Below are positions 3,231-24,000 of a DNA stretch of 32,000 bases, in pieces. The notes under the pieces were generated by a model. That model was not told the origin of the DNA, ran no database searches, and worked only from the letters and a program-made list of their open reading frames with translations. A program made the position numbers and the translations under genes. Origin of the DNA: Desulfotalea psychrophila LSv54. GTDB taxonomy: Bacteria > Desulfobacterota > Desulfobulbia > Desulfobulbales > Desulfocapsaceae. The stretch covers positions 2,040,001-2,072,000 of the forward strand of contig NC_006138.1 of NCBI RefSeq assembly GCF_000025945.1. Reading direction: 5' to 3'. The number at the start of each line of letters is the position of its first letter. The stretch's first letter is position 1.

Positions 3231-4787
3231 TCATAATCGTTTGAGCTGGCAACTTTTCCTTCTGTAGAGGAGAAGATAGCCGCCCACTATCAATAAACAT
3301 AATGGCGCAAAAAGATAGCCCCAACAAACAAAAAACGTTCGTTTTTCCAGGAGAGGGATCTCTTCCACCCCCACCCAGGAACTAAAGAGTGGTGAGACCT
3401 GTACCAGCGTTCCCAAGGGGCTGATGAATGCCGAAAATCCCGTATTTGCAGAGCGGACTATACTGCGTCTTGTCTCAACTGCCCGCATAGCTGTCATTGC
3501 CAAACTATGATATGGGGCACTCGATCTACCATACCAGGCATCATTGGTCAAATTCACCAGAACATTAGCACCGGAGTCAACCCATTTTCTGGAGATGTCG
3601 GCAAAGACAGACTCAAAACAGATAAGCACCCCGGAACGGGCATTCTGCCAATCCAGGGTCTTCTCTACTCGACCCGGAGTGAAATCTCCCACGGAGACCA
3701 CAAGCGGTTCCAGAAATGGCAGGTATTTTCGAAAAGGGACATACTCTCCAAAGGGAACCAGGTGACTCTTGTAGTAGGATCCTGAGAATCCTTTCCGGGA
3801 GAGTAGTTGTGCACTGTTATAATAGTCTATATCGCGTGCTTTTTGATCGACAATCCGGAACCAGGGGGCGCCAGTAAGGAGAGCATAGTCATAGCGACTA
3901 ACGGAATCCTGCAGGGACTGGGTGTAGATAGACTTTTCCGGGTAGAAGGGGAGAGCGGTCTCTGGCCAGACAACCATCTCCGGTCTGTTTTGCCTGAAGA
4001 GCCCCTCGGTCAGGCCCAGATATTTTTCCACAGTCTGGCCTGTCTGATTGACAGACCACTTGAGGTTCTGTTCAATATTGCCCTGGACAATGGCCACCGT
4101 TATGGTCTTGGCCTCAGCCATTTCCAAGCTTATCTGTTTTTGCCGTAGCTGTGAATAGGCAGTTAGGGCAAGGATAATAAGCCACGGGGTAAGGAGGCTT
4201 ATTGGTCTTCTTTTAATTCTCCCACCTCTTAGGAAAAACGAGATAAGCTGGTAAAAAGAGACGTTCAGCATGATAATGACAAAGGTCAGGCCATGGTGGC
4301 CAAAGAGATCGGCAAATTGGAGCAGGGAGGGGGTAAGGGCAAGCCCGTAGCCCAGATCCATCCAGGGAAAACCGGTGAAGAGATATGCTCGTAGCCAATC
4401 AATTCCCACCCAGAGTGCGGGCAGGAGCCAGAGCCCGGCTCTGCCTGTCAGGAAGGTCCGGCCCACCAGGACAAAGGTAAGCAGGTATATGCTCATATAG
4501 AGGGCAAGCATGGCCAGGGCTGGCAGGGCAAGATAAAGGGGCAGCCCGCCGTACTGTTTGAGAACGATGACAATCCAGTAGAGCTGCCACATATAGTGAA
4601 CAGATCCTGCCAGAAGGGCGCAGGCACCTGCCTGTTTAGCTCCTGTTCCTTGTAGGGCAAAAAACAGAGGTATCAGGGCAAGAGGAAGCAGGGGCCAGAA
4701 GCCACCACTGCCTGGCATTGCCAGGGAGAGGGAGATGCCTGTAAGTAGGGAGAGGAGGTAGGGCAGGGATCGTCGACAGATATTCAT
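3231..4787 (-). CDS. lnt: Apolipoprotein N-acyltransferase
   Basis: Multi-TM N-terminal half plus a C-terminal CN-hydrolase domain (VVWPETALPF, YYKSHLVPFGEYVPF, LICFESVF). Lies 2 nt after the corC stop, the classic ybeX-lnt order. Confidence 0.9.
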   Translation of the reverse strand: MNICRRSLPYLLSLLTGISLSLAMPGSGGFWPLLPLALIPLFFALQGTGAKQAGACALLAGSVHYMWQLYWIVIVLKQYGGLPLYLALPALAMLALYMSIYLLTFVLVGRTFLTGRAGLWLLPALWVGIDWLRAYLFTGFPWMDLGYGLALTPSLLQFADLFGHHGLTFVIIMLNVSFYQLISFFLRGGRIKRRPISLLTPWLIILALTAYSQLRQKQISLEMAEAKTITVAIVQGNIEQNLKWSVNQTGQTVEKYLGLTEGLFRQNRPEMVVWPETALPFYPEKSIYTQSLQDSVSRYDYALLTGAPWFRIVDQKARDIDYYNSAQLLSRKGFSGSYYKSHLVPFGEYVPFRKYLPFLEPLVVSVGDFTPGRVEKTLDWQNARSGVLICFESVFADISRKWVDSGANVLVNLTNDAWYGRSSAPYHSLAMTAMRAVETRRSIVRSANTGFSAFISPLGTLVQVSPLFSSWVGVEEIPLLEKRTFFVCWGYLFAPLCLLIVGGYLLLYRRKSCQLKRL

Positions 4788-13718: not shown

Positions 13719-14867
13719 ATGTCTGTTTATATTACTGATATCGCATCTTTTCTGCCAAATGCCCCGGTGGATAACGAGCAAATGGAAGAGATCCTGGGTA
13801 TGGTTAATCAGTTGCCCTCCAGAACAAGGCGCATCATCCTCCGTAATAACCGGATCAAGACCCGCTATTATGCTATTGATCCTGTGACGGGTGAAACGAC
13901 TCATAGCAATACCCAGTTGACGGCCGAGGCGGTGAGGAGGTTGCGTCCAGCGGCCAACTTTCAACTCGATGAGATTGAATGTCTCTGCTGCGGTACTTCA
14001 TCACCCGATCAGCTCATGCCCGGTCATGCCCCCATGGTCCATGGCGAACTGGGCAATGCGGCCTGCGAGGTAATGACTGCCGCCGGTATTTGCACCTCCG
14101 GGATGACGGCCATGCGCTATGCCTGGCTTAATGTTCTGGCGGGACAGAGTAGTAATGCGGTGGCCACCGGCTCTGAGCTGGCCTCGACCTTTATGCGTTC
14201 GCGTCTTTGTAACTCGGTGGTTAGTGAGGAGAAGATTGAGCAGATGGAAAAACAGCCCGTGCTCTCCTTTGAGGCAGATTTTCTGCGCTGGATGCTCTCC
14301 GATGGGGCTGGAGCCGCCTATCTGACCAATGCGCCCAGGGCGGAGGGACTCTCTCTGAAGATTGAGTGGATTGATCTGCTCTCCTTTGCCCATGAGCTCC
14401 CGACCTGTATGTATGCCGGAGCCAGTAAGGGGAAGAGTGGTGCGCTGGTCGGTTGGCGAGAGCACGCTCCCGTCGATGCCTTGAGTCAGGGGGCCATGCT
14501 TATTAAGCAGGATGTGAAGCTGCTCAACGAGGAGATCATTACCACCGCCGTTGAACGGACCCTCCCGAGGTTAATAGAGAAGTATGATCTGCAGGCCGAG
14601 GAAATTGACTGGTTTCTTCCCCACTACTCTTCGGATTATTTTCGCTTGGCCTTTTATGAGCGAATGGAAAAAATTGGCTTTGCCATCCCTTTGGATCGTT
14701 GGTTTACCAATCTCACCAGCAAGGGTAACACCGGATCGGCCTCTATCTATATCATTCTCGCCGAGCTCTTTCATTCGGGCAGGATCAAGCGGGGCGAAAA
14801 GATCCTCTGTTTTATCCCTGAGAGTGGTCGCTTTTCCATGTGTTATATGCTTCTCACGGCTTGTTAG
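13719..14867 (+). CDS. KAS III (FabH)-like thiolase-fold condensing enzyme
   Basis: Cys in AAGICTSGMTAM, His in FLPHYSS and Asn in KGNTGSASIYI form a FabH-like C-H-N triad arrangement. Starts 3 nt after the radical SAM stop. Confidence 0.78.
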   Translation: MSVYITDIASFLPNAPVDNEQMEEILGMVNQLPSRTRRIILRNNRIKTRYYAIDPVTGETTHSNTQLTAEAVRRLRPAANFQLDEIECLCCGTSSPDQLMPGHAPMVHGELGNAACEVMTAAGICTSGMTAMRYAWLNVLAGQSSNAVATGSELASTFMRSRLCNSVVSEEKIEQMEKQPVLSFEADFLRWMLSDGAGAAYLTNAPRAEGLSLKIEWIDLLSFAHELPTCMYAGASKGKSGALVGWREHAPVDALSQGAMLIKQDVKLLNEEIITTAVERTLPRLIEKYDLQAEEIDWFLPHYSSDYFRLAFYERMEKIGFAIPLDRWFTNLTSKGNTGSASIYIILAELFHSGRIKRGEKILCFIPESGRFSMCYMLLTAC

Positions 14868-15063
14868 TAGTTGGTAATGGTGGTGAGACTGTTTTCTTTT
14901 CCAGCGCATAAAAAAATTGCCTTACTGTAAAGAACATTTCAAGGGGTGTTCCTTGCATTTTTCTCCTCTCTTCTTTAGAACTTCTCCTTGTTTGCCATTG
15001 ATCTATCCACTTGCGAGGAAGATTTAGATCAAAGTTAATATTGACAAGTTTAAATATTTTTTA

Positions 15064-15094
15064 TTGACATTCCCCTACAGGGTAAAGGTATCTT
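15064..15094 (+). promoter_or_regulatory. MerR-type promoter P1 (TTGACA, 19-bp spacer with CCCT-ac-AGGG dyad, TATCTT) upstream of the DMT permease operon
   Basis: The 19-mer TATTGACATTCCCCTACAG (15062-15080) is identical to 18144-18162. An over-long 19-bp spacer is the hallmark of MerR-activated promoters. Confidence 0.55.
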
Positions 15095-15181
15095 CAGGAA
15101 TCAGTAAATTGTTTTTATACGCAAAAACAAACACTTCTATGATATTCCAGTATTTACCTATTAAAAGTTGAGGAGAGAAAA

Positions 15182-16270
15182 ATGGGGCAAACATCTGCTG
15201 CACCAAGTCTTGTTGCTGTTGCAGCGAAAAAACAGCTTGATTCCAGTTTTAGACGAAGAGGGATTACCATAGCATTGGCTTCAGGCCTATTTTATGGATT
15301 TTACACTGCTTTTATGACACTTGGTATGTCTAAAGGTATTTGGCTTGAGTGGTATGGTTCGCAGTCAAATTTATCAGCCTTTGCCGTTATGTATCTCCTC
15401 AGTGCCCTGGGCGCCGCCACCACGGATACCTGCAGTGCTCTCTGGGCTGTCTCTTTTGCAGTACTCAGAGGACGTTTTGGTGATTTTACCCGCTGCATAA
15501 GGACAAAACCGGGTATGGTAATGGTTGCGGCTGCTATCATAGGTGGGCCACTGGCCAGTACAGCCTATGTTATAGGACTTCAGCTAGCAGGATCCATTGT
15601 CGTGCCCATAGCTGCCCTCTGCCCTGCCTTTGGCGCAATAATTGGTCACTTTCTTTTTAAGCAAAAATTAACAGCGCGTATTATGCTGGGAATAGCAATT
15701 TGCTTTGCCGCCAGTTTCCTTATTGGTAGTACAGGGCTTGGTGCTAATGTTCCGGATAATCTCTTTCTTGGTCTCTTCTTCGGTTTGGCTGCCGCAGTTT
15801 TCTGGGGTATAGAGGGATGTATCTGTGGCTATGGAACCTCAATGATTGATCCTGAAATAGGAATTACCATTCGCCAGGTAACCGCTGGTTTTTCAAATCT
15901 ATTTATTCTCGTGCCCCTCTTTGGCATAATTGCTCAGGTAGATAGCTTTGCCATGGTGACCCAATCTTTTACCGATGGTGGTTCGATTATCTATTTTGCC
16001 ATTGCCGGATTGTGTGCCTACCTGACATTTATGTACTGGTATAAAGGTAATGGCATGTGTGGTGCTGCCCTTGGCATGTCCTGTAACGGAACCTTCTCTT
16101 TCTGGGGTCCTTTTTGTTGCTGGATTGTTTTGGGTATTGTTTTTGGCATTGAGGGCTGGTCCATGCCTCCGATAGCTTGGGCTGCGGCCATTCTTATGGT
16201 TATTGGTATTTTTATTATAGCAATGAACCCCTTAGATCTGTTTAAAAAAAGTAATCAGGAGACAGCATGA
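15182..16270 (+). CDS. 10-TM permease, drug/metabolite transporter (DMT/EamA-GRP-like) superfamily; candidate substrate importer for the cut locus
   Basis: 362 aa, about 10 hydrophobic segments in two halves. GGPLASTAYVIGLQLAGSIVVPIAALCPAFGAIIGHFLFKQKL is an EamA-like repeat. RBS GAGGAGAG. Confidence 0.65.
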   Translation: MGQTSAAPSLVAVAAKKQLDSSFRRRGITIALASGLFYGFYTAFMTLGMSKGIWLEWYGSQSNLSAFAVMYLLSALGAATTDTCSALWAVSFAVLRGRFGDFTRCIRTKPGMVMVAAAIIGGPLASTAYVIGLQLAGSIVVPIAALCPAFGAIIGHFLFKQKLTARIMLGIAICFAASFLIGSTGLGANVPDNLFLGLFFGLAAAVFWGIEGCICGYGTSMIDPEIGITIRQVTAGFSNLFILVPLFGIIAQVDSFAMVTQSFTDGGSIIYFAIAGLCAYLTFMYWYKGNGMCGAALGMSCNGTFSFWGPFCCWIVLGIVFGIEGWSMPPIAWAAAILMVIGIFIIAMNPLDLFKKSNQETA

Positions 16271-16533
16271 TTCCATTAAATTACGCCATCTTGAAATTTT
16301 TTACCAAAAATGATGATGCATCAGCTGATTGTGTTATGAGTGCCTTGCAGGACCAGTACGGTCACTATAAGGCCTTCAAAAAAGGCTCAATCATCAATGC
16401 CATAATGACAGCCGAGGCCAATGGTCTTCTTGAAGAGGCTAGATTAGAGCTTGATCCTAGTCAAGAGCTGAAGGTTTATTACAGGGCCCATGAAGAGGGC
16501 GCTGCAACAATAAACAAGTATATCAAGGGTTAG
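16267..16533 (+). CDS. 88-aa soluble protein of unknown function, possibly a small winged-helix fold
   Basis: ATGA overlap with the permease stop implies translational coupling. ..NAIMTAEANGLLEEARLELDPSQELKVYYRAHEEGAATINKYI resembles the wing region of PadR-like proteins, but weakly. Confidence 0.45.
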   Translation: MIPLNYAILKFFTKNDDASADCVMSALQDQYGHYKAFKKGSIINAIMTAEANGLLEEARLELDPSQELKVYYRAHEEGAATINKYIKG

Positions 16534-16550
16534 TAGAATATTCAGTGTCG

Positions 16551-16577
16551 GTGAGTCTCCTCTTGCAGGAGGCTCAC
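16551..16577 (+). terminator. Hairpin after the permease operon (weak terminator)
   Basis: GTGAGTCTCCT-cttgc-AGGAGGCTCAC, 11 bp including one G-U pair. No strong T-tract. Confidence 0.35.
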
Positions 16578-16996
16578 TGGCTCTGTCTGTAGAACCAGAG
16601 AAAAAAATCAGTACCGTTTCTCTCTGTAGGATACCGCTCAGATTAGAGTGGTTTGTAACACCCTGCATTAGAAAGTTATTCTCCCTAGTAAAACCTATCC
16701 TCTCTATTCTCCCCCCTTATTTGTCCAATTTTGAGCTAACAGCTAGGCTGTTTCAGGGTCTCTTATGAATTTGTTTGAGGTGAGGCGAGGTCTATGCATT
16801 TATTTTTCGTCTCTTGACATACGAGAAAGTATCTGTTCCAACAGGAGTTGGATATGATATTTTATTGTTGTCCTTCTCTCAGCGGTCAGAGTGTTTATTT
16901 GGCGACAATACGAAGAGATGGGTCTCTTGTTCTGTCCTGCTTATTGTGCTAGCCCAGCCTTGAATATTGACCGATCCATAAGAGGGATAAGAGAGT

Positions 16997-17848
16997 ATGA
17001 GTCACAAAAAGAAATATTTCATAGGAGATATGAGTAAGATATGTAATTTGTCAAAAAAGGCTCTTCGATTTTATGACAAAATAGGCATAATTCCATCTCA
17101 TAGGCATGACTGTAATAATTACAGGTACTATACCAGTGAATCACTGTTGGCCGTTCCGGTAATAAAGTACTATAAGCAGATGGGGTTTACTCTGGAAGAG
17201 ATGAAGGAGTTTATCGAAGGCAAAGACCCTAACGTTTTTAAGAGTATAAAAAAATCCTTTTTGAATAAAATTAAATCATTTGAAGAGGAGCAGGAGAAGA
17301 TTGAGCGGAAACATATTGCCGTTAAAGACTGGTATGAACTCATTTTGGAAGCTGAGACGGTTATTGAGAACAGTATATCCGATGTTTCCGTTAAGTACAT
17401 CGATAGCGCAGAGCTATTATGTCAGGAGCAATACTATGAAAAAGATATAAAGGCCTCCATTGTCAATATTGACTTTACAAATTATGTCGAAGAGCTGGAT
17501 AACGAGATAACCGGGCCGGTAATAATCTATTTTTCACCCCTGCAAGATAGAATTGAAAATCGGCCACAGGCAATTAAGATTCTGCAAAAAACAATAAAAA
17601 CCTGTAGTAAGAAGAACAGGGAAACATTCGGTGGCTGCATGATGGCTTCCTGTTACCATATAGGTTCGCATGATACGATCCAACAGACATATCAAAAAAT
17701 ATGTAAATGGGCCGGGCAAAATGGTTATGTTCTGGGCAAAGGCTCCTATGAACGGTATGTTACAGATTACTGGACCACGCGGAACACCTCTAAGTTTATC
17801 ACTGAGATATTAATCAAGGCGACCAGAATGAGAGAGGCTATTCAGTAA
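16997..17848 (+). CDS. MerR-family transcriptional regulator with a C-terminal GyrI-like effector-binding domain (BmrR-like architecture)
   Basis: N-terminal YFIGDMSKICNLSKKALRFYDKIGIIPSHR..NYRYYT is a MerR HTH, followed by a coiled-coil linker. C-terminal ..ASCYHIGSHDTIQQTYQKICKWAGQNGYVLGKGSYERYVTDYW is GyrI-like. Confidence 0.85.
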   Translation: MSHKKKYFIGDMSKICNLSKKALRFYDKIGIIPSHRHDCNNYRYYTSESLLAVPVIKYYKQMGFTLEEMKEFIEGKDPNVFKSIKKSFLNKIKSFEEEQEKIERKHIAVKDWYELILEAETVIENSISDVSVKYIDSAELLCQEQYYEKDIKASIVNIDFTNYVEELDNEITGPVIIYFSPLQDRIENRPQAIKILQKTIKTCSKKNRETFGGCMMASCYHIGSHDTIQQTYQKICKWAGQNGYVLGKGSYERYVTDYWTTRNTSKFITEILIKATRMREAIQ

Positions 17849-17911
17849 GAGGTGCATTGCTCTCGATGAGTAGTTGTTATCTTAGTTTCTTGTCGTCACG
17901 GGCTGGCAAAG

Positions 17912-17938
17912 CTTCCCCTATAGGGGAGGTCGTTTTTT
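17912..17938 (+). terminator. Intrinsic terminator of the MerR gene; its stem is a perfect CCCCTATAGGGG palindrome resembling the P1/P2 operator
   Basis: CTTCCCC-tata-GGGGAGG stem-loop, then tcgTTTTTT. TTCCCCTATAG matches TTCCCCTACAG in P1 and P2 at 10 of 11 positions. Confidence 0.6.
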
Positions 17939-18145
17939 CCGGAGCAGGTATTTTTGCTCTAAGAGAGCGGTAGCTACCCTGGCAGAACTCCCTCTTTTTT
18001 TCCAACTCTCTACAGCGAATAGATACTCTCTTCCTCCTGTCATGTGAGCATTTTCCCCGGAAAATCAGCTTGAAGCCTGTCTCTTGCGCTAAGGCACAAA
18101 AATGAATAGAGGCCTCTGCCGGCAAAATAATTTTCAAAAACAGTA

Positions 18146-18177
18146 TTGACATTCCCCTACAGTGGAGACCTTATAGT
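18146..18177 (+). promoter_or_regulatory. MerR-type promoter P2 upstream of the BMC/cut operon
   Basis: TTGACA, then a 19-nt spacer ttcccctacagtggagacc, then TTATAG (or a 20-nt spacer and TATAGT). Shares the 19-mer with P1. Confidence 0.55.
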
Positions 18178-18267
18178 GGTTAAGTGTAAAAAAAGATGAT
18201 TATAAGGTTCACCTCTTTTGATCAATTGCAACCACTTTCAAACAAGTAACAGCTTGATGGAGATTAT

Positions 18268-18879
18268 ATGGGGTATCACGTTGACGGGGCTTTAGGCTTA
18301 ATTGAAACTCTTGGAATGGTTCCTGCCATTAGTGGCGCGGACGCTATGCTGAAAACAGCTGATGTCACCTTGGTTTCCTATGAAAATATTGGCTCTACTC
18401 TGGTGGCTGTGATGGTCAAGGGAGATACTGCGGCAGTTCAGGCTTCGGTGGATGCGGGGGCCAAGGCTGCGGCCAAAGTAGGCCAGGTTACAGCGCAAAA
18501 TGTTATGCCCCGCCCTGTTCGGGAGGTGGATGCTATTGCTGCCGTTCACGGTATAGACAGATCTGAGGCGGTCAGCGGGTCGCGACCAAAATCCATGGGC
18601 TTTGTTGAGACCTTTGGCATTGTTTTTGCCCTGGAAGCAATCGATGCCATGGTTAAGGCTGCCAATGTAGAGGTTATCGGCTATGAGAACGTCGCCTCGG
18701 GATATATATCCGTATTAGTTGAGGGTGATGTCGCTGCCTGCCAGGCCGGCGTTGCTGCAGGCGTTCAGGCTGTTGAACGGATGGGTGGAGAGGTACATAG
18801 CTCTCTTGTTATCCCCACCCCTCACCCTGATATAGAGCTGATAACCAGGACCTATGCCTTGGATAAACTTTTACCCTAG
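18268..18879 (+). CDS. BMC shell protein, fusion of two canonical PduA/J-like BMC domains (tandem)
   Basis: Two repeats of the BMC-H signature: ALGLIETLGMVPAISGADAMLKTADVTLVSYENIG..VAVMVKGDTAAVQASV and MGFVETFGIVFALEAIDAMVKAANVEVIGYENV..ISVLVEGDVAACQAGV. Confidence 0.85.
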   Translation: MGYHVDGALGLIETLGMVPAISGADAMLKTADVTLVSYENIGSTLVAVMVKGDTAAVQASVDAGAKAAAKVGQVTAQNVMPRPVREVDAIAAVHGIDRSEAVSGSRPKSMGFVETFGIVFALEAIDAMVKAANVEVIGYENVASGYISVLVEGDVAACQAGVAAGVQAVERMGGEVHSSLVIPTPHPDIELITRTYALDKLLP

Positions 18880-18951
18880 CCCTCCGTTACTGACAGATGA
18901 TATTGGCAGAAACCTCAACCTGCATGCAGGGTGTAGATAAAGGCAAATATA

Positions 18952-20454
18952 ATGATTGTTGACAACGATTTACTCTCCGTTCAAGAGGCCAGAATTCTGG
19001 TTGAGGATGCTTTTGAAGCCCAAAAGAAATTGGCAACATTCTCCCAGGAAAAGCTGGATGAGATTGTTGAAGGTATGACCCGGGCTGTTGAAGGTCAGCT
19101 TCGGGATCTTGCCCAGATGTCTCAAGAAGAAACCGAAATTGGCAAATGGCAGGACAAGCATATCAAGAACAGCTTTGTCTGTAGCTATAGCCGTAGCCAT
19201 CTGCGCTATATGCACTGTGTTGGTGTTATTGGTGAAGACCCGATGAACGCCATCACCGAGATAGGGGTCCCCATTGGGGTTATTGTATCCACCTGCCCTG
19301 AGACAAGCCCTGTCTCTACAGCTATATATAATACACTTATTGCCATTAAGTCCGGCAATGCCATCATCTTCTCTCCCCATCCCAGAGCCCGACAGAGTAT
19401 TGGCAAAACCCTGGATATTATGAGAGAGGCGGCTCAGGCCCATGGGCTTCCCGAGGGCTGTCTGGCTTATTTGCAGACCGTAGATCATAGTGGTCTTCTG
19501 GAGTTGATGAACCATGACTGCACCTCACTTCTTCTTATTGGTGGAGATGAAATCTTACTGCAGACCGCAGCTGGCACAGGTAAAACCATCATCTATGGTG
19601 GTACCGGAAACGGACCGGCCTTTATAGAACGCTCGGCCGATATTGAACAGGCGGCACGAGATATCATTGCCAGCAAATCCTTTGATAATGGTATTGCCCC
19701 GGCGGCAGAACAGTCTCTGGTGGTGGATGCTCCGGTGGCAGAAGATGTACGTCGGGCAATGAAGAGAAATGGGGCATATTTTATGTCCGAGCAGGAGGCT
19801 AGTCAGCTCGTTCAGATATTTTTTACCTCCGCCGGCAAGCATAAAAAGGGAGTTGTTGGTATCTCGGCTCAGAGGCTTGCCCAACGGGCCGGTTTTATCG
19901 TGCCTGCAGACGTGACCCTCCTCGTGGCTGAGCGTAAATATGTCTCCGAAGCCGATCCCTACTATCGTGCCTTTCTTGCCCCCGTTCTTGCCATGTATGT
20001 GGAAGAGGACTGGATGGATGCCTGTGAAAAATGTATAGAACTTCTTCTCTATGAGAAAAAGGCCCACTCTCTGGTTATTCACTCTTGCAATAAAGAGATT
20101 ATTCATCAGTTCGCCCTGAAAAAACCGGTGGCCAGACTCTTGGTGAACACCCCGGGAGCCTTTGGTGGCATGGGTGCAACGACCAACCTCTTTCCCTCTA
20201 TGATGCTGGGAAGCTCCTCCGCTGGACACGGTGTTACCTCTGACAATGTCTCACCCTTAAATCTTATCTATAGGAGAAAGGTGGGCTATCAGGTCAGAAG
20301 TATGGAGGAAGTAAAAAAAACAATAATGGTCGAGGAACCCCTTCGCCATGTGAGCAGTACCCCGATAGAAAGTAATGATTCAGTGACGGTGGAGGTAATA
20401 CATCAAATCCTGAAGAAGGCGATTAAGACCATAAATGACCCCGCCGCTCATTGA
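18952..20454 (+). CDS. AdhE-type (CoA-acylating) aldehyde dehydrogenase homologue, apparently lacking the catalytic Cys and Asn; C-terminal amphipathic helix
   Basis: Aligns along its length with the AdhE N-terminal domain (NAIIFSPHPRAR, GGTGNGPAFIERSADI). The active-site block reads SKSFDNGIAPAAEQS where AdhE has SKTFDNGVICASEQS. TNPTST is replaced by TSPVST. Confidence 0.8.
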   Translation: MIVDNDLLSVQEARILVEDAFEAQKKLATFSQEKLDEIVEGMTRAVEGQLRDLAQMSQEETEIGKWQDKHIKNSFVCSYSRSHLRYMHCVGVIGEDPMNAITEIGVPIGVIVSTCPETSPVSTAIYNTLIAIKSGNAIIFSPHPRARQSIGKTLDIMREAAQAHGLPEGCLAYLQTVDHSGLLELMNHDCTSLLLIGGDEILLQTAAGTGKTIIYGGTGNGPAFIERSADIEQAARDIIASKSFDNGIAPAAEQSLVVDAPVAEDVRRAMKRNGAYFMSEQEASQLVQIFFTSAGKHKKGVVGISAQRLAQRAGFIVPADVTLLVAERKYVSEADPYYRAFLAPVLAMYVEEDWMDACEKCIELLLYEKKAHSLVIHSCNKEIIHQFALKKPVARLLVNTPGAFGGMGATTNLFPSMMLGSSSAGHGVTSDNVSPLNLIYRRKVGYQVRSMEEVKKTIMVEEPLRHVSSTPIESNDSVTVEVIHQILKKAIKTINDPAAH

Positions 20455-20478
20455 TATCCCTTAGATGGAGGAAGCAAA

Positions 20479-23019
20479 TTGGATCTTCAAAGTTTTTCTG
20501 AAAAACTCATAGTAGCAACCAAAAACCTTAATGCTGCGGAGCGCGCCTCCCTGAAAAAGATCTTCGATGGTGATTCCACCGAGATTGCAGAGGACAAGAA
20601 TGTGCCATCGGCTCATCTCTCTGTAGACCCATGTGCTATACCCAATGGGCCTACTGATCGACATATAAAGCTTAAGAAAAAATTCCTTACTCACGTGCCC
20701 ACCATCACCACCCATCGGGCTCGGGCCATCACCAAGATTGCTCAGGAAAACCCAGGATTGCCCAAGGCTATTCTGCGCGGTAAATCCTTTAAGTACTGTT
20801 GTGAAACGGCACCCCTGGTAATCCAGGATAATGAGCTCATCGTTGGTTCTCCCTGCGGTGCTCCCCGGGCCGGTGCCTTCTCGCCAGATATCGCTTGGCG
20901 CTGGGTTAAGGATGAACTTGATACCATCGGCACTCGTCCTCAGGATCCCTTCTTTATCTCCGAAGAGGATAAAAAGATCATGCGCGAAGAGCTCTTCCCC
21001 TTCTGGGAAGGCCGATCCATTGATGAGTATTGTGAGCAGCAGTACCGCGAAGCGGGTATGTGGGAACTCTCCGGTGAATCCTATGTTACCGATTGCTCTT
21101 ATCACGCCACAAATGGCGGTGGTGATTCTAATCCTGGCTACGATGTAATCCTGATGAAAAAGGGTATGCTTGATATCGTCAGGGAGTCTCAGGAGAAGTT
21201 GGCCGAACTGGATTATGAAAATCCCGATGATATGGATAAGATCTATTTTTATAAGTCTCTTATCGATACCGCAGAAGGGGTAATGATCTACGCCAAGCGT
21301 CTCTCTGACTATGCGGCCCAATTGGCAGCCAGTGAGAAAGATCCCCAGCGTAAGGCAGAACTTGAGAAGATCTCAGCTGTAAACGCCCGGGTTCCTGCTC
21401 ATAAGCCCGAGACCTATTGGGAGGCTATTCAGGCAGTCTGGACCGTTGAATCTCTTCTTATCGTTGAAGAGAATCAGACAGGCATGTCCATTGGTCGTGT
21501 TGATCAGTATATGTACCCATTTTATAAGGCAGATATTGAAGCAGGACGCATGACCGAGTATGAGGCCTTTGATCTCTCCGGTTGTCTGCTGGTGAAATGT
21601 TCCGAGATGATGTGGATCACCAGTGAGGATGCCTCCAAGTTCTTCGCTGGCTATCAACCCTTCGTCAATATGTGCCTGGGCGGGGTGACCCGCGAGGGTC
21701 TTGATGCCACCAATGATCTTACCTACCTCCTTATGGATGCCGTTCGTCATGTTAAGGTTTATCAACCCTCTGTGTCCACCCGTGTTCATAACCAATCTCC
21801 TCAGAAGTATCTGAAGAAGATTGTGGATGTGATTCGTGCCGGCATGGGCTTTCCCGCCATCCACTTCGACGATGCCCATATTAAGATAATGCTGGCCAAG
21901 GGCTGCTCCATTGAAGATTCCCGTGATTATTGCCTCATGGGTTGCGTAGAGCCTCAGAAGTCTGGTCGTCTCTATCAGTGGACTTCCACCGCCTACACCC
22001 AGTGGCCCATCTGTATTGAGATGGCTCTCAACCACGGAGTGCCTCTCTGGTACGGCAAGCAGGTCTGTCCTGATCTTGGCGCCCTGGAGTCCTTTGATAC
22101 CTATGAGAAATTTGACGCGGCCGTTAAGGAGCAGATCAAGTATGTGACCAAGTGGACCAGTGTCGGTACCGTTATTTCCCAACGCATTCACCGGGATCTG
22201 GCTCCTAAACCTCTTATGTCTATGATGTACGAGGGTTGTATGGAGTCCGGTAAAGATGTCTCGGCAGGCGGTGCTATGTATAACTTTGGCCCCGGTGTTG
22301 TCTGGAGTGGCCTTGCCACCCATGCCGACTCCATGGCAGCTATTAAAAAACTGGTCTTTGATGACAAGAAGTACAGCTTGACCCAGCTTAATGAAGCCCT
22401 AAAGGCCGAGTTTAAGGGCTATGACCAGCTGAAGGCCGATTGTCTTGCCGCTCCTAAGTTTGGTAACGATGACGATTACGCTGATCTTATCGTTAATGAT
22501 CTGGTGAACTTCACCGAGCGGGAGCATCGTAAGTTTAAGACCCTCTATTCGGTTTTGAGCCATGGTACCCTCTCCATCTCTAATAATACGCCATTTGGTC
22601 AACTCCTTGGTGCTTCAGCCAATGGTCGTGATGCCTGGATGCCCCTCTCCGATGGTATCAGCCCTACCCAGGGTGCTGACTTTAAGGGGCCCACCGCCAT
22701 CATTAAGTCCGTATCGAAAATGCCCACCGATAGCATGAACATCGGTATGGTGCATAACTTCAAGCTGATGTCCGGTCTTTTGGATACACCCGAAGGTGAG
22801 AACGGTATCATCACCCTGATCCGTACTGCCAGTATGATGGGTAACGGTGAGATGCAGTTTAACTATCTCGATAATGACACCCTGCTTGATGCTCAGTTAC
22901 ATCCTGAAAAGTATCGTGATCTGGTGGTTCGGGTTGCCGGTTACAGTGCCTTTTTTGTTGAGCTGTGCAAGGATGTACAGGATGAAATTATCAGCAGAAC
23001 CATGTTGACTGAAATTTAG
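20479..23019 (+). CDS. cutC: Choline trimethylamine-lyase (glycyl radical enzyme), TTG start
   Basis: 846 aa. RVAGYSAFF puts the radical Gly at residue 821; GCVEP gives C489/E491. By my own residue count, Y208, D216, F395, T502 and Y506 fall at the numbering I recall for the Desulfovibrio alaskensis CutC choline pocket. RBS GGAGGAAG. Confidence 0.93.
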
Positions 23020-23067
23020 GCTTTTATCCCCTCTTAGGGCAGATATTTAAGACGAAGAGAGTGTATC

Positions 23068-24000
23068 GTGGCAGAAAGAAAAGCACATATATTTAATATC
23101 CAAAAGTATAATATGTACGATGGCCCCGGGGTGAGAACCCTGGTCTTTTTCAAAGGGTGCCCTCTTCGTTGCCTGTGGTGCTCGAATCCCGAAGGACAAC
23201 TGCGCCAGCCTCAGGTTTTGCTGAAGCAGGATCGCTGTATTGACTGCGGTGACTGTGTCCCGGTTTGTCCCGTTGGCATTCATCGTCTCCTGCCTGGTAG
23301 TAAAAAGCATGAGATAAATCAGAAGATAGAGTGCATAGGCTGTGGGAAGTGTGAGGCGGCTTGCAAGCAGGGGGCCCTTGCCATCACCGGTGGTTTGCAG
23401 ACTATCTCTCAGTTGCTTGAGGTGATTGAAGAGGATAGGCCCTTCTACGAGATGTCTGGTGGAGGGGTTACCCTTGGCGGAGGTGAGGTGTTGATGCAAC
23501 CGAAGGCTGCGGCAAGTCTTTTGATGAGCTGTAAGCAGAGGGGAATTAATACCGCCATTGAAACCTGTGGCTATGCCCGTCCCGAGGTGATCAAGAGTGT
23601 TGCGGAGTTTACAGATCTCTTTCTTTTTGATATCAAACATATGAACTCGGAAAGACACCGCGAACTGACCGGGGTGCGTAATGAGCTTATTCTCAGCAAT
23701 GTCCAGTGGCTTCTGGAAAACCGATTTAACGTCCGGATCAGGGTACCGGTTCTGAGAGGAGTTAATGACGGTGAGACGGAACTGGCTCAGCTGATAGATT
23801 TTCTCCGGCCATATCTTGGCTTGAAGAATTTCAAGGGAGTTGATATTCTCCCCTATCATAAAATGGGTGTTAATAAATACAGGCAGTTGGGCTGGGACTA
23901 TCCCATCGAGGGTCCCGTTGAACTAAATACTGCTGATCTGGAACGTATTGAGAGCTATTTTAAACTAAATAATTTTCCGGTATCGGTGATTCAGCACTGA
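23068..24000 (+). CDS. cutD: Glycyl-radical enzyme activating enzyme (radical SAM), GTG start
   Basis: GPGVRTLVFFKGCPLRCLWCSNPE (CX3CX2C), plus two ferredoxin-like motifs CIDCGDCVPVCP and CIGCGKCEAAC. Lies immediately downstream of cutC. Confidence 0.9.
   Translation: MAERKAHIFNIQKYNMYDGPGVRTLVFFKGCPLRCLWCSNPEGQLRQPQVLLKQDRCIDCGDCVPVCPVGIHRLLPGSKKHEINQKIECIGCGKCEAACKQGALAITGGLQTISQLLEVIEEDRPFYEMSGGGVTLGGGEVLMQPKAAASLLMSCKQRGINTAIETCGYARPEVIKSVAEFTDLFLFDIKHMNSERHRELTGVRNELILSNVQWLLENRFNVRIRVPVLRGVNDGETELAQLIDFLRPYLGLKNFKGVDILPYHKMGVNKYRQLGWDYPIEGPVELNTADLERIESYFKLNNFPVSVIQH

Follow-up and report, generated by a model that had tools for sequence, protein, structure and literature searches.

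A predicted choline-responsive MerR-type regulon with two over-long-spacer promoters at the cut locus of Desulfotalea psychrophila

Introduction

What switches on a choline-degrading gene cluster in an anaerobe, and does a neighbouring transporter answer to the same switch? The anaerobic breakdown of choline to trimethylamine matters for nitrogen and carbon cycling in the gut and in the sea and for human disease linked to trimethylamine N-oxide, and for this reason the switching on of the cut cluster is of practical interest. We address the question in a stretch of 32,000 nucleotides (nt) from the psychrophilic marine sulfate reducer Desulfotalea psychrophila LSv54 (NC_006138.1, positions 2,040,001 to 2,072,000 of the forward strand). 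This whole stretch is referred to below as the window, and positions are counted from its first letter. The window holds a cut microcompartment operon, a gene for a MerR-family regulator and a putative transporter gene, and one and the same 19-nt sequence stands ahead of both the transporter gene and the cut operon. A sequence-only reading of this DNA had proposed a small regulon in which a MerR activator governs uptake and catabolism together.

We consider it highly probable that an activator of the Dde_3291 type, when choline is present, co-induces the putative transporter and the choline trimethylamine-lyase microcompartment through two promoters with over-long spacers. The proposed regulon is thereby upheld, on the strength of the regulator's match to the NCBIfam model NF053782, the cut equivalogs, the conserved promoters and the precedent in Desulfovibrio alaskensis G20. 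Publications of 2014-2015 had already described regulator, signal, motif and targets, and the finding is a re-discovery in a new organism: the window provides a clean, rearranged example and leaves the known picture unchanged.

Two promoters carry an operator inside an over-long spacer

The sequence TATTGACATTCCCCTACAG occurs exactly at 15062-15080 and at 18144-18162, both times on the + strand, and a search at up to 3 mismatches returned no further copy elsewhere in the window. In 100 dinucleotide-preserving shuffles of the window it had 0 matches (chance expectation 0), so the earlier claim that the repeat exceeds chance holds. Each copy joins a -35 hexamer directly to a TTCCCC-N4-GGGxAx dyad; the first belongs to the promoter of the transporter operon (P_dmt) and the second to that of the cut operon (P_cut), with the coordinates of their elements collected in Table 1.

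At P_dmt, the -35 hexamer is followed by a spacer of 19 base pairs (bp), TTCCCCTACAGGGTAAAGG (15070-15088), and the dyad is centered between 15077 and 15078. The spacer of P_cut begins TTCCCCTACAGTGGAG, with TTCCCC from 18152 and the dyad center between 18159 and 18160. Two -10 hexamers come into consideration there, TTATAG at a 19-bp spacing or TATAGT at a 20-bp spacing (spacer 18152-18171). TATAGT appears the likelier of the two, because the window follows the 19/20-bp split of related promoters described below. The sequence-only reading had assigned to both promoters TTGACA with a 19-bp spacer and a CCCT-N2-AGGG-type dyad. The spacing stands for P_dmt, with TATCTT as its -10-like hexamer, but is likelier 20 bp at P_cut; the dyad is exact at the first promoter but reads CCCTACAGTGG at the second, where the right half-site, GTGGAG, is degenerate. 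When compared with the palindromic motif published for this type of regulator, CnTTCCCCnnnnGGGGAAnG, the window shows 1 mismatch at 15068-15087, 3 at 18150-18169 and 3 at a further site, 17911-17930, to which we return below. The left half-site and the -35 hexamer are exact in both promoters.

Both promoters have the two hallmarks of the MerR type, an over-long spacer of 19-20 bp and a palindromic operator inside that spacer. In both, the dyad center lies 8 bp past the -35 and 11-12 bp ahead of the -10. By analogy with the -23 centering reported for an orthologous operator (PMC4045070), we infer the position of the dyad relative to the transcription start, which would lie near 15100 for P_dmt and near 18182-18184 for P_cut. 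Among experimentally confirmed MerR-family promoters, 28 of the 28 surveyed have spacers of 19-20 bp, and the central kink introduced by BmrR lies at -24 (PMC7722741). A standard sigma-70 scan with spacers of 16-18 nt missed both promoters and returned fewer sites than in shuffles, a miss that is expected because the spacers here measure 19-20 bp.

A second TTGACA is present at 15041-15046, 23 bp upstream of the P_dmt -35; it is without a suitably spaced -10, the next TA-rich hexamer being only 15 bp off. An Rfam scan of 14800-18400 at E values up to 1 found no known RNA in the leaders or in the 463-nt gap that precedes the regulator gene, and the idea of a riboswitch or other known RNA was rejected. 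One more motif-like sequence, CTCTTCCCCTTCTGGGAAGG, lies inside cutC at 20992-21011. It encodes a conserved FPFWE and recurs at the same place in orthologue cutC genes, and we regard it as probably a matter of coding constraint and not as an internal operator.

The promoter architecture is conserved across related loci

We gathered 25 genome loci, 4 loci found through related proteins and 80 metagenome loci, from which 70 non-redundant loci (591 kb) formed the set for the promoter and motif survey. The sequence-only reading had proposed searching orthologous loci for the motif, and that search bore out its expectation. In all 10 of the 10 close orthologous loci, the transporter and cut promoters both have TTGAC[ACT] directly abutting TTCCCC. 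Across the 70 loci, the motif at up to 1 mismatch matched 80 times, and 39 of these 80 sites have an abutting -35 hexamer with at least 5 of 6 matches. When we searched for TTGACN followed by a TTCCCC-like half-site and allowed -10 spacings of 16-22 bp, 58 promoters were found; 22 of them have their best -10 at 19 bp and 35 have it at 20 bp, together 57 of the 58.

The two spacings are not distributed evenly between targets. Transporter promoters mostly have 19 bp (with -10 hexamers such as TATAAA, TACAAA and TATCTT) and cut promoters mostly 20 bp (xTAnnnT), and the window matches this pattern with 19 bp at its transporter promoter and 20 bp at its cut promoter. A degenerate right half-site, as seen at P_cut, is likewise a regular feature of the cut promoters of most close orthologues (GGTCAG, GGGCAG, GGGTGA). 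The survey thus adds that nearly all promoters of this regulator family combine a -35-abutting operator with a 19/20-bp spacer, that transporter promoters prefer 19 bp and cut promoters 20 bp, and that a third operator-like site is conserved. None of these additions changes the picture of regulator, signal, motif and targets established in 2014-2015.

A group of loci of low G+C content, represented by L054 (3386-3420, 4524-4555 and 4653-4685) and including L056 and L077, has a promoter-type operator before the regulator gene itself (ATTGCA-TTCCTC...GGGGAA, with the -10 TATACT at 20 bp) and two promoter-type operators in tandem before shell genes.

The regulator belongs to the choline activators typified by Dde_3291

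The regulator passes the NCBIfam equivalog NF053782, "choline utilization transcriptional activator", at 503.6 bits (cutoff 450) over residues 1-277 of 283; the choline activator function is also encoded in the NCBI annotation model. In Pfam it matches MerR, MerR_1 and GyrI-like, which corresponds to a MerR helix-turn-helix (HTH) followed by a GyrI-like domain. The assignment of a MerR/GyrI-like gene to the interval between the two promoters is therefore correct, except that three genes lie there and not one: the transporter gene, an open reading frame (ORF) of 88 codons and the regulator gene. The regulator is flanked by the cut cluster directly downstream and by the transporter upstream, and related loci show the same neighbourhood.

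Kuehl et al. (2014) found that choline cannot induce the cut cluster of D. alaskensis G20 without the MerR-like protein Dde_3291. In the mutant, induction was lost within 1 h of a shift to choline, and Dde_3291 was concluded to be a choline-dependent activator (PMC4045070). The motif CnTTCCCCnnnnGGGGAAnG was obtained in that study from upstream regions compared in three Desulfovibrio species. In G20 the motif precedes Dde_3288, with which the regulator-containing operon Dde_3288:Dde_3291 opens, and also Dde_3284, at the start of the cut cluster, where the site is centered at -23, "as expected for MerR-type activators"; the operon Dde_3288:Dde_3291 is moreover needed for fitness on choline (PMC4045070). 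From synteny in related loci, this operon appears to start with the transporter gene. In D. desulfuricans, the neighbouring predicted transporter Ddes_1354 shows a 32-fold induction by choline, and this type of MerR regulator is found with nearly every type I cut cluster (Martinez-del Campo et al. 2015, PMC4453576). The suggestion that MerR/GyrI-type control had not been described for cut loci consequently falls, given its publication in 2014-2015 (PMC4045070, PMC4453576) and its place in the NCBI model.

The D. psychrophila system shares with the Dde_3291 regulon its regulator family (the equivalog cutoff is passed), its operator motif, its pair of targets (the cut microcompartment operon and an operon with a transporter gene) and the placement of the operator between -35 and -10. 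It differs in that the G20 transporter-regulator operon is divergent from the cut operon, whereas all genes in the window are co-directional, and in that the window has a 463-nt gap before the regulator gene and an operator-like terminator between that gene and P_cut. The G20 regulon was shown genetically, whereas that of D. psychrophila is predicted here from sequence.

Geometry, family membership and conservation (58 promoters, 70 loci) come from the present analysis, and choline-dependent activation and the -23 centering come from the G20 orthologue; from these we infer binding, ligand, distortion and transcription starts in D. psychrophila. In the mechanism that we propose, a regulator dimer would sit on the operator, on the face of the DNA opposite RNA polymerase. 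In the presence of choline, kinking and under-twisting of the spacer by this dimer would bring the -35 and -10 into register, and the transporter and cut operons would be switched on together.

Several observations weigh against this proposal. The right half-site of P_cut, GTGGAG, is poor, and the window contains chance matches at the level of 3 mismatches as well. Neither -10 hexamer is better than moderate; TATCTT scores 4 of 6. The regulator gene begins 463 nt downstream of the 88-codon ORF, so its co-transcription with the transporter gene is uncertain. The hairpin that follows the regulator gene, with a predicted RNA fold of -18.8 kcal/mol (z -1.5), is not significantly more stable than shuffles. 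Finally, choline induction in vivo could act through a metabolite.

An operator-like palindrome follows the regulator gene

The third match to the motif is found between the regulator gene and P_cut. Here TTCCCCTATAGGGGAG (17913-17928), 65 nt past the regulator stop codon, was picked up by a terminator scan as a hairpin with an 8-pair stem, a 4-nt loop and a T6 run two nt after the stem, and its core has 1 mismatch to TTCCCC-N4-GGGGAA. A G+C-rich hairpin with a T run downstream of a stop codon is what a Rho-independent terminator consists of in sequence. The sequence-only reading had described a perfect palindrome of 15 nt forming the stem of the regulator's own terminator; the terminator-like hairpin was recovered, but the strictly perfect palindrome, TCCCCTATAGGGGA (17914-17927), measures 14 nt. 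Most likely, as judged from its sequence, the palindrome ends the regulator transcript so that read-through stays out of the cut operon.

Related loci suggest that there may be more to this element than termination. In 15 of the 18 loci in which cut or transporter genes follow the regulator gene co-directionally, a stand-alone palindrome without a -35 lies 3-111 nt past the regulator stop codon. Counted at up to 1 mismatch, the density of such sites over the first 150 nt past the regulator gene is about 30 times that found elsewhere. The arms of the post-regulator hairpins often reach 11-20 bp, and about half of these hairpins come with a stretch of 5 or more T. Their flanks differ among loci yet stay complementary (AAAAGG/CCTTTT, GAAACC/GGTTTC, AGAAACA/TGTTTCT), and TTCCCC...GGGGAA persists in the core although the identity between regulators ranges from 39 to 100%. 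In distant loci, every hairpin of this kind retains the operator core (L043 at 4327, L061 at 4337, L067 at 3615, L076 at 1924 and L090 at 4393). In L047 (about 4345-4385) such a hairpin is kept although the regulator gene is the last of its cluster and no regulated promoter follows. Because the core is conserved across such a range of regulators, and in L047 likewise, it appears to be under sequence-specific selection, which would most simply reflect binding by the regulator.

Loci with divergent gene order have a stand-alone copy elsewhere. This copy, CCTTCCCC-N3/4-GGGGAAGG, is without a -35 and lies 35-41 bp downstream of the transporter operator, at roughly +8 to +30. Its arms extend no further than the 8-bp CCTTCCCC, and the non-pairing variant GGGTAA occurs both in it and in promoter operators; for these two reasons it looks like a DNA site and not like an RNA hairpin. 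Leader copies were found in eleven loci listed in Table 1 and are absent from L008, L026 and L029 and from the transporter leader of the window. Such a copy could serve as a roadblock or as a negative-feedback site.

Taken together, the stand-alone palindromes may be a conserved third component of the regulon with a dual function, acting both as DNA predicted to be bound by the activator and as an RNA hairpin. We hold this reading tentatively, at somewhat short of an even chance. In co-directional loci the copy sits after the regulator gene, built into the terminator hairpin, and in divergent loci it sits in the transporter leader. The element would either help, as a roadblock, to insulate P_cut against read-through from the regulator gene or exert negative feedback on the operon of transporter and regulator. 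A plainer account, which we find plausible but clearly short of even, is that the palindrome in the window is an intrinsic terminator only, its likeness to an operator having no binding function. No -35 or -10 surrounds it, and its 8-pair G+C-rich stem and T6 run suit a terminator, as do the long, variably flanked but complementary arms and the frequent T runs in related loci; its mid-stem departures, like those in L067 and L090, are moreover compatible with wobble pairing. A stem selected for pairing only should drift, however, and yet no more than 2 mismatches separate the core from TTCCCC-N3-4-GGGGAA in the same 15 of 18 co-directional loci. The local enrichment of close matches, the several copies that lack a T run (L054, L056) and the 8-bp leader copies of divergent loci with their GGGTAA variant also speak against termination as the sole function.

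To our knowledge, an operator that doubles as the terminator of its regulator's own gene has not been described for MerR-family systems. Neither Kuehl et al. (2014) nor Martinez-del Campo et al. (2015) mentions a palindrome after the regulator gene, and the operator-like terminator may be new, as a modest addition to a known system.

Three further ideas about these palindromes were rejected. A role of the leader palindromes as minus-strand promoters was discarded because their -10-like sequences are inconsistent across loci. The post-regulator palindrome is not helically phased with the cut operator (distances of 197, 239, 246 and 277 bp). The minus-strand ORF at 17877-18152 (91 codons), which overlaps the palindrome, was not accepted as a gene, since it matches no Pfam family and related loci have no conserved homologue of it.

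Why the identity spans 19 nucleotides

The length of the identity between the two promoters can be largely accounted for by their function. Of its 19 positions, 12 make up the -35 hexamer and the left half-site, which are near-invariant across the 58 promoters. The other 7 comprise the TA ahead of the -35, the TACA in the middle and the initial G; in orthologues they vary freely or show only a bias in composition, and a pair of promoters from one genome is identical there over stretches of about 9-15 nt. We consider it unlikely that the identity goes back to a recent event, duplication or gene conversion, involving both promoter regions; after such an event both might still function as promoters. 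Such an event would explain why the identity takes in about 7 positions left free by the published motif when the shared runs in orthologues are shorter and their central tetranucleotides often differ, and it would suit a locus that has been rearranged to a co-directional order, unlike its closest relatives. The similarity nevertheless ends abruptly outside the block of -35 and left half-site, and blastn of the intergenic regions revealed no wider similarity. The 12 constrained positions would in any case be expected to agree, and the central tetranucleotide is compositionally biased (TTAA, CTAA, TATA) in the same 58 promoters. Shared constraint explains most of the 19-nt identity, to which some concerted evolution in this rearranged locus may have contributed.

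Relation to other regulators and the inducing signal

The nearest solved structures to the regulator are those of EcmrR (E 7.8e-17) and BmrR (about 2e-11). These proteins, from Escherichia coli and Bacillus subtilis, respectively, have the same architecture of a MerR domain with a GyrI-like sensor domain and are its best PDB matches, and they distort the DNA to activate promoters whose spacers measure 19-20 bp (PMC7722741, PMC8113463). Unlike the regulator in the window, which governs the uptake and catabolism of one nutrient, BmrR and EcmrR are multidrug sensors for efflux pumps, and sequence similarity to them covers only the HTH and the last part of the GyrI-like domain. The core of the bmr operator (TCCCCTA...) presumably resembles the operator in the window. 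The type II cut clusters of Gammaproteobacteria likewise contain choline-inducible cutC and cutD together with microcompartment genes, but they use a TetR-family regulator and are without a MerR regulator (PMC4453576), whereas the window contains a type I cluster.

That the regulator senses a signal other than choline (acetaldehyde, trimethylamine or another quaternary amine), or mainly represses at its sites, is quite improbable: the family evidence is an in vivo dependence on choline medium only (PMC4045070) and the nearest structural relatives are promiscuous cation sensors, but the prompt loss of induction in the G20 mutant led its authors to a choline-dependent activator (PMC4045070), an operator inside a 19-20 bp spacer is the design of an activator (PMC7722741), and the co-regulation of a transporter fits the sensing of its substrate.

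Genes and gene order of the locus

All genes of the locus, including the cut operon, lie on the + strand. The cluster has the composition of a type I cut microcompartment cluster, with CutC and CutD equivalogs, BMC domains and an acylating aldehyde dehydrogenase, and further shell genes follow beyond CutD.

Table 1. Coordinates of the promoter elements, palindromes and genes in the window, with the leader copies found in related loci
Feature	Position	Strand	Basis
P_dmt, -35 TTGACA	15064..15069	+	Sequence; TTGACN abuts TTCCCC at the equivalent orthologue promoter
Operator 1, CATTCCCCTACAGGGTAAAG	15068..15087	+	1 mismatch to published motif CnTTCCCCnnnnGGGGAAnG
P_dmt, -10-like TATCTT	15089..15094	+	19 bp after -35; orthologue transporter promoters mostly 19 bp
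Putative choline transporter, 362 residues, weakly EamA/DMT-like membrane protein	15182..16270	+	Pfam, orthologues
Conserved ORF, 88 residues, always after the transporter gene	16267..16533	+	tblastn in related loci
Choline utilization transcriptional activator, 283 residues, Dde_3291 orthologue	16997..17848	+	NCBIfam, Pfam
Operator-like palindrome GCTTCCCCTATAGGGGAGGT, then CG and T6; terminator-like hairpin, candidate third binding site	17911..17938	+	Terminator scan
P_cut, -35 TTGACA	18146..18151	+	Sequence, orthologues
Operator 2, CATTCCCCTACAGTGGAGAC	18150..18169	+	3 mismatches to published motif, all in or beyond the right half-site
P_cut, -10-like TATAGT (likelier option)	18172..18177	+	20 bp after -35; 20-bp register xTAnnnT of related cut promoters
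Tandem-BMC shell protein, first gene of the cut operon	18268-18879	+	
Acylating aldehyde dehydrogenase, EutE-like	18952-20454	+	
CutC	20479-23019	+	TIGR04394, 1667.8 bits (cutoff 1050)
CutD	23068-24000	+	TIGR04395, 569.6 bits (cutoff 360)
Leader copies in divergent loci	L001 4242-4256; L002 4325-4340; L003 4387-4401; L007 4324-4339; L010 4233-4248; L027 4360-4375		
Further leader copies	L004, L006, L009, L030, L032		

The designation of the upstream unit as a DMT permease operon can be kept only in part. A transporter role is supported by context and by orthologues, the protein being 63-81% identical to the product of the gene that occupies this place in most related cut loci from Desulfobacterota. 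Its Pfam match to EamA, in contrast, reaches 24.4 bits and stays below the gathering score of 28.2, no NCBIfam family was matched, and its orthologues carry only a faint EamA match. Membership in the DMT/EamA superfamily is accordingly tentative.

The 88-codon ORF overlaps the transporter stop codon and is conserved at 50-79% identity in most of the related loci surveyed. It matched no Pfam or NCBIfam family, the only hint being a sub-threshold PadR-like winged-helix match (E 0.023). The gap of 463 nt that separates it from the regulator gene (16534-16996) is non-coding; most orthologues have roughly 70-300 nt at this place. We found no Rfam match, conserved ORF, operator motif or recognizable relic gene within it. 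A weak hairpin is present in the gap at 16837-16852.

The gene order of the window sets it apart from its closest relatives, in all of which the cut operon is divergent from the unit of transporter gene, 88-codon ORF and regulator gene. These relatives include a Desulfotalea sp. genome with a regulator 61% identical to that of the window, Desulfopila, Desulfosediminicola and Maridesulfovibrio, and G20 has the same divergent order. The comparison covered 13719-24000 of the window and the loci L001-L010 and L026-L029. A blastn and tblastx comparison of the three intergenic regions with all 109 loci matched promoter cores only; no breakpoints of the rearrangement are recognizable, and its history cannot be reconstructed. 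The difference in order points to a local inversion or re-insertion in D. psychrophila. The co-directional order is also found in the more distant loci L037, L061, L062 and L067.

The public D. psychrophila entry for the regulator is 100% identical to the protein described here but has 272 residues, starting 11 residues later (the difference corresponds to 16997-17029 of the window). The annotated start looks too short and the longer one better, because the alignment with orthologues already includes residue 1 and the HTH starts as early as about residue 6.

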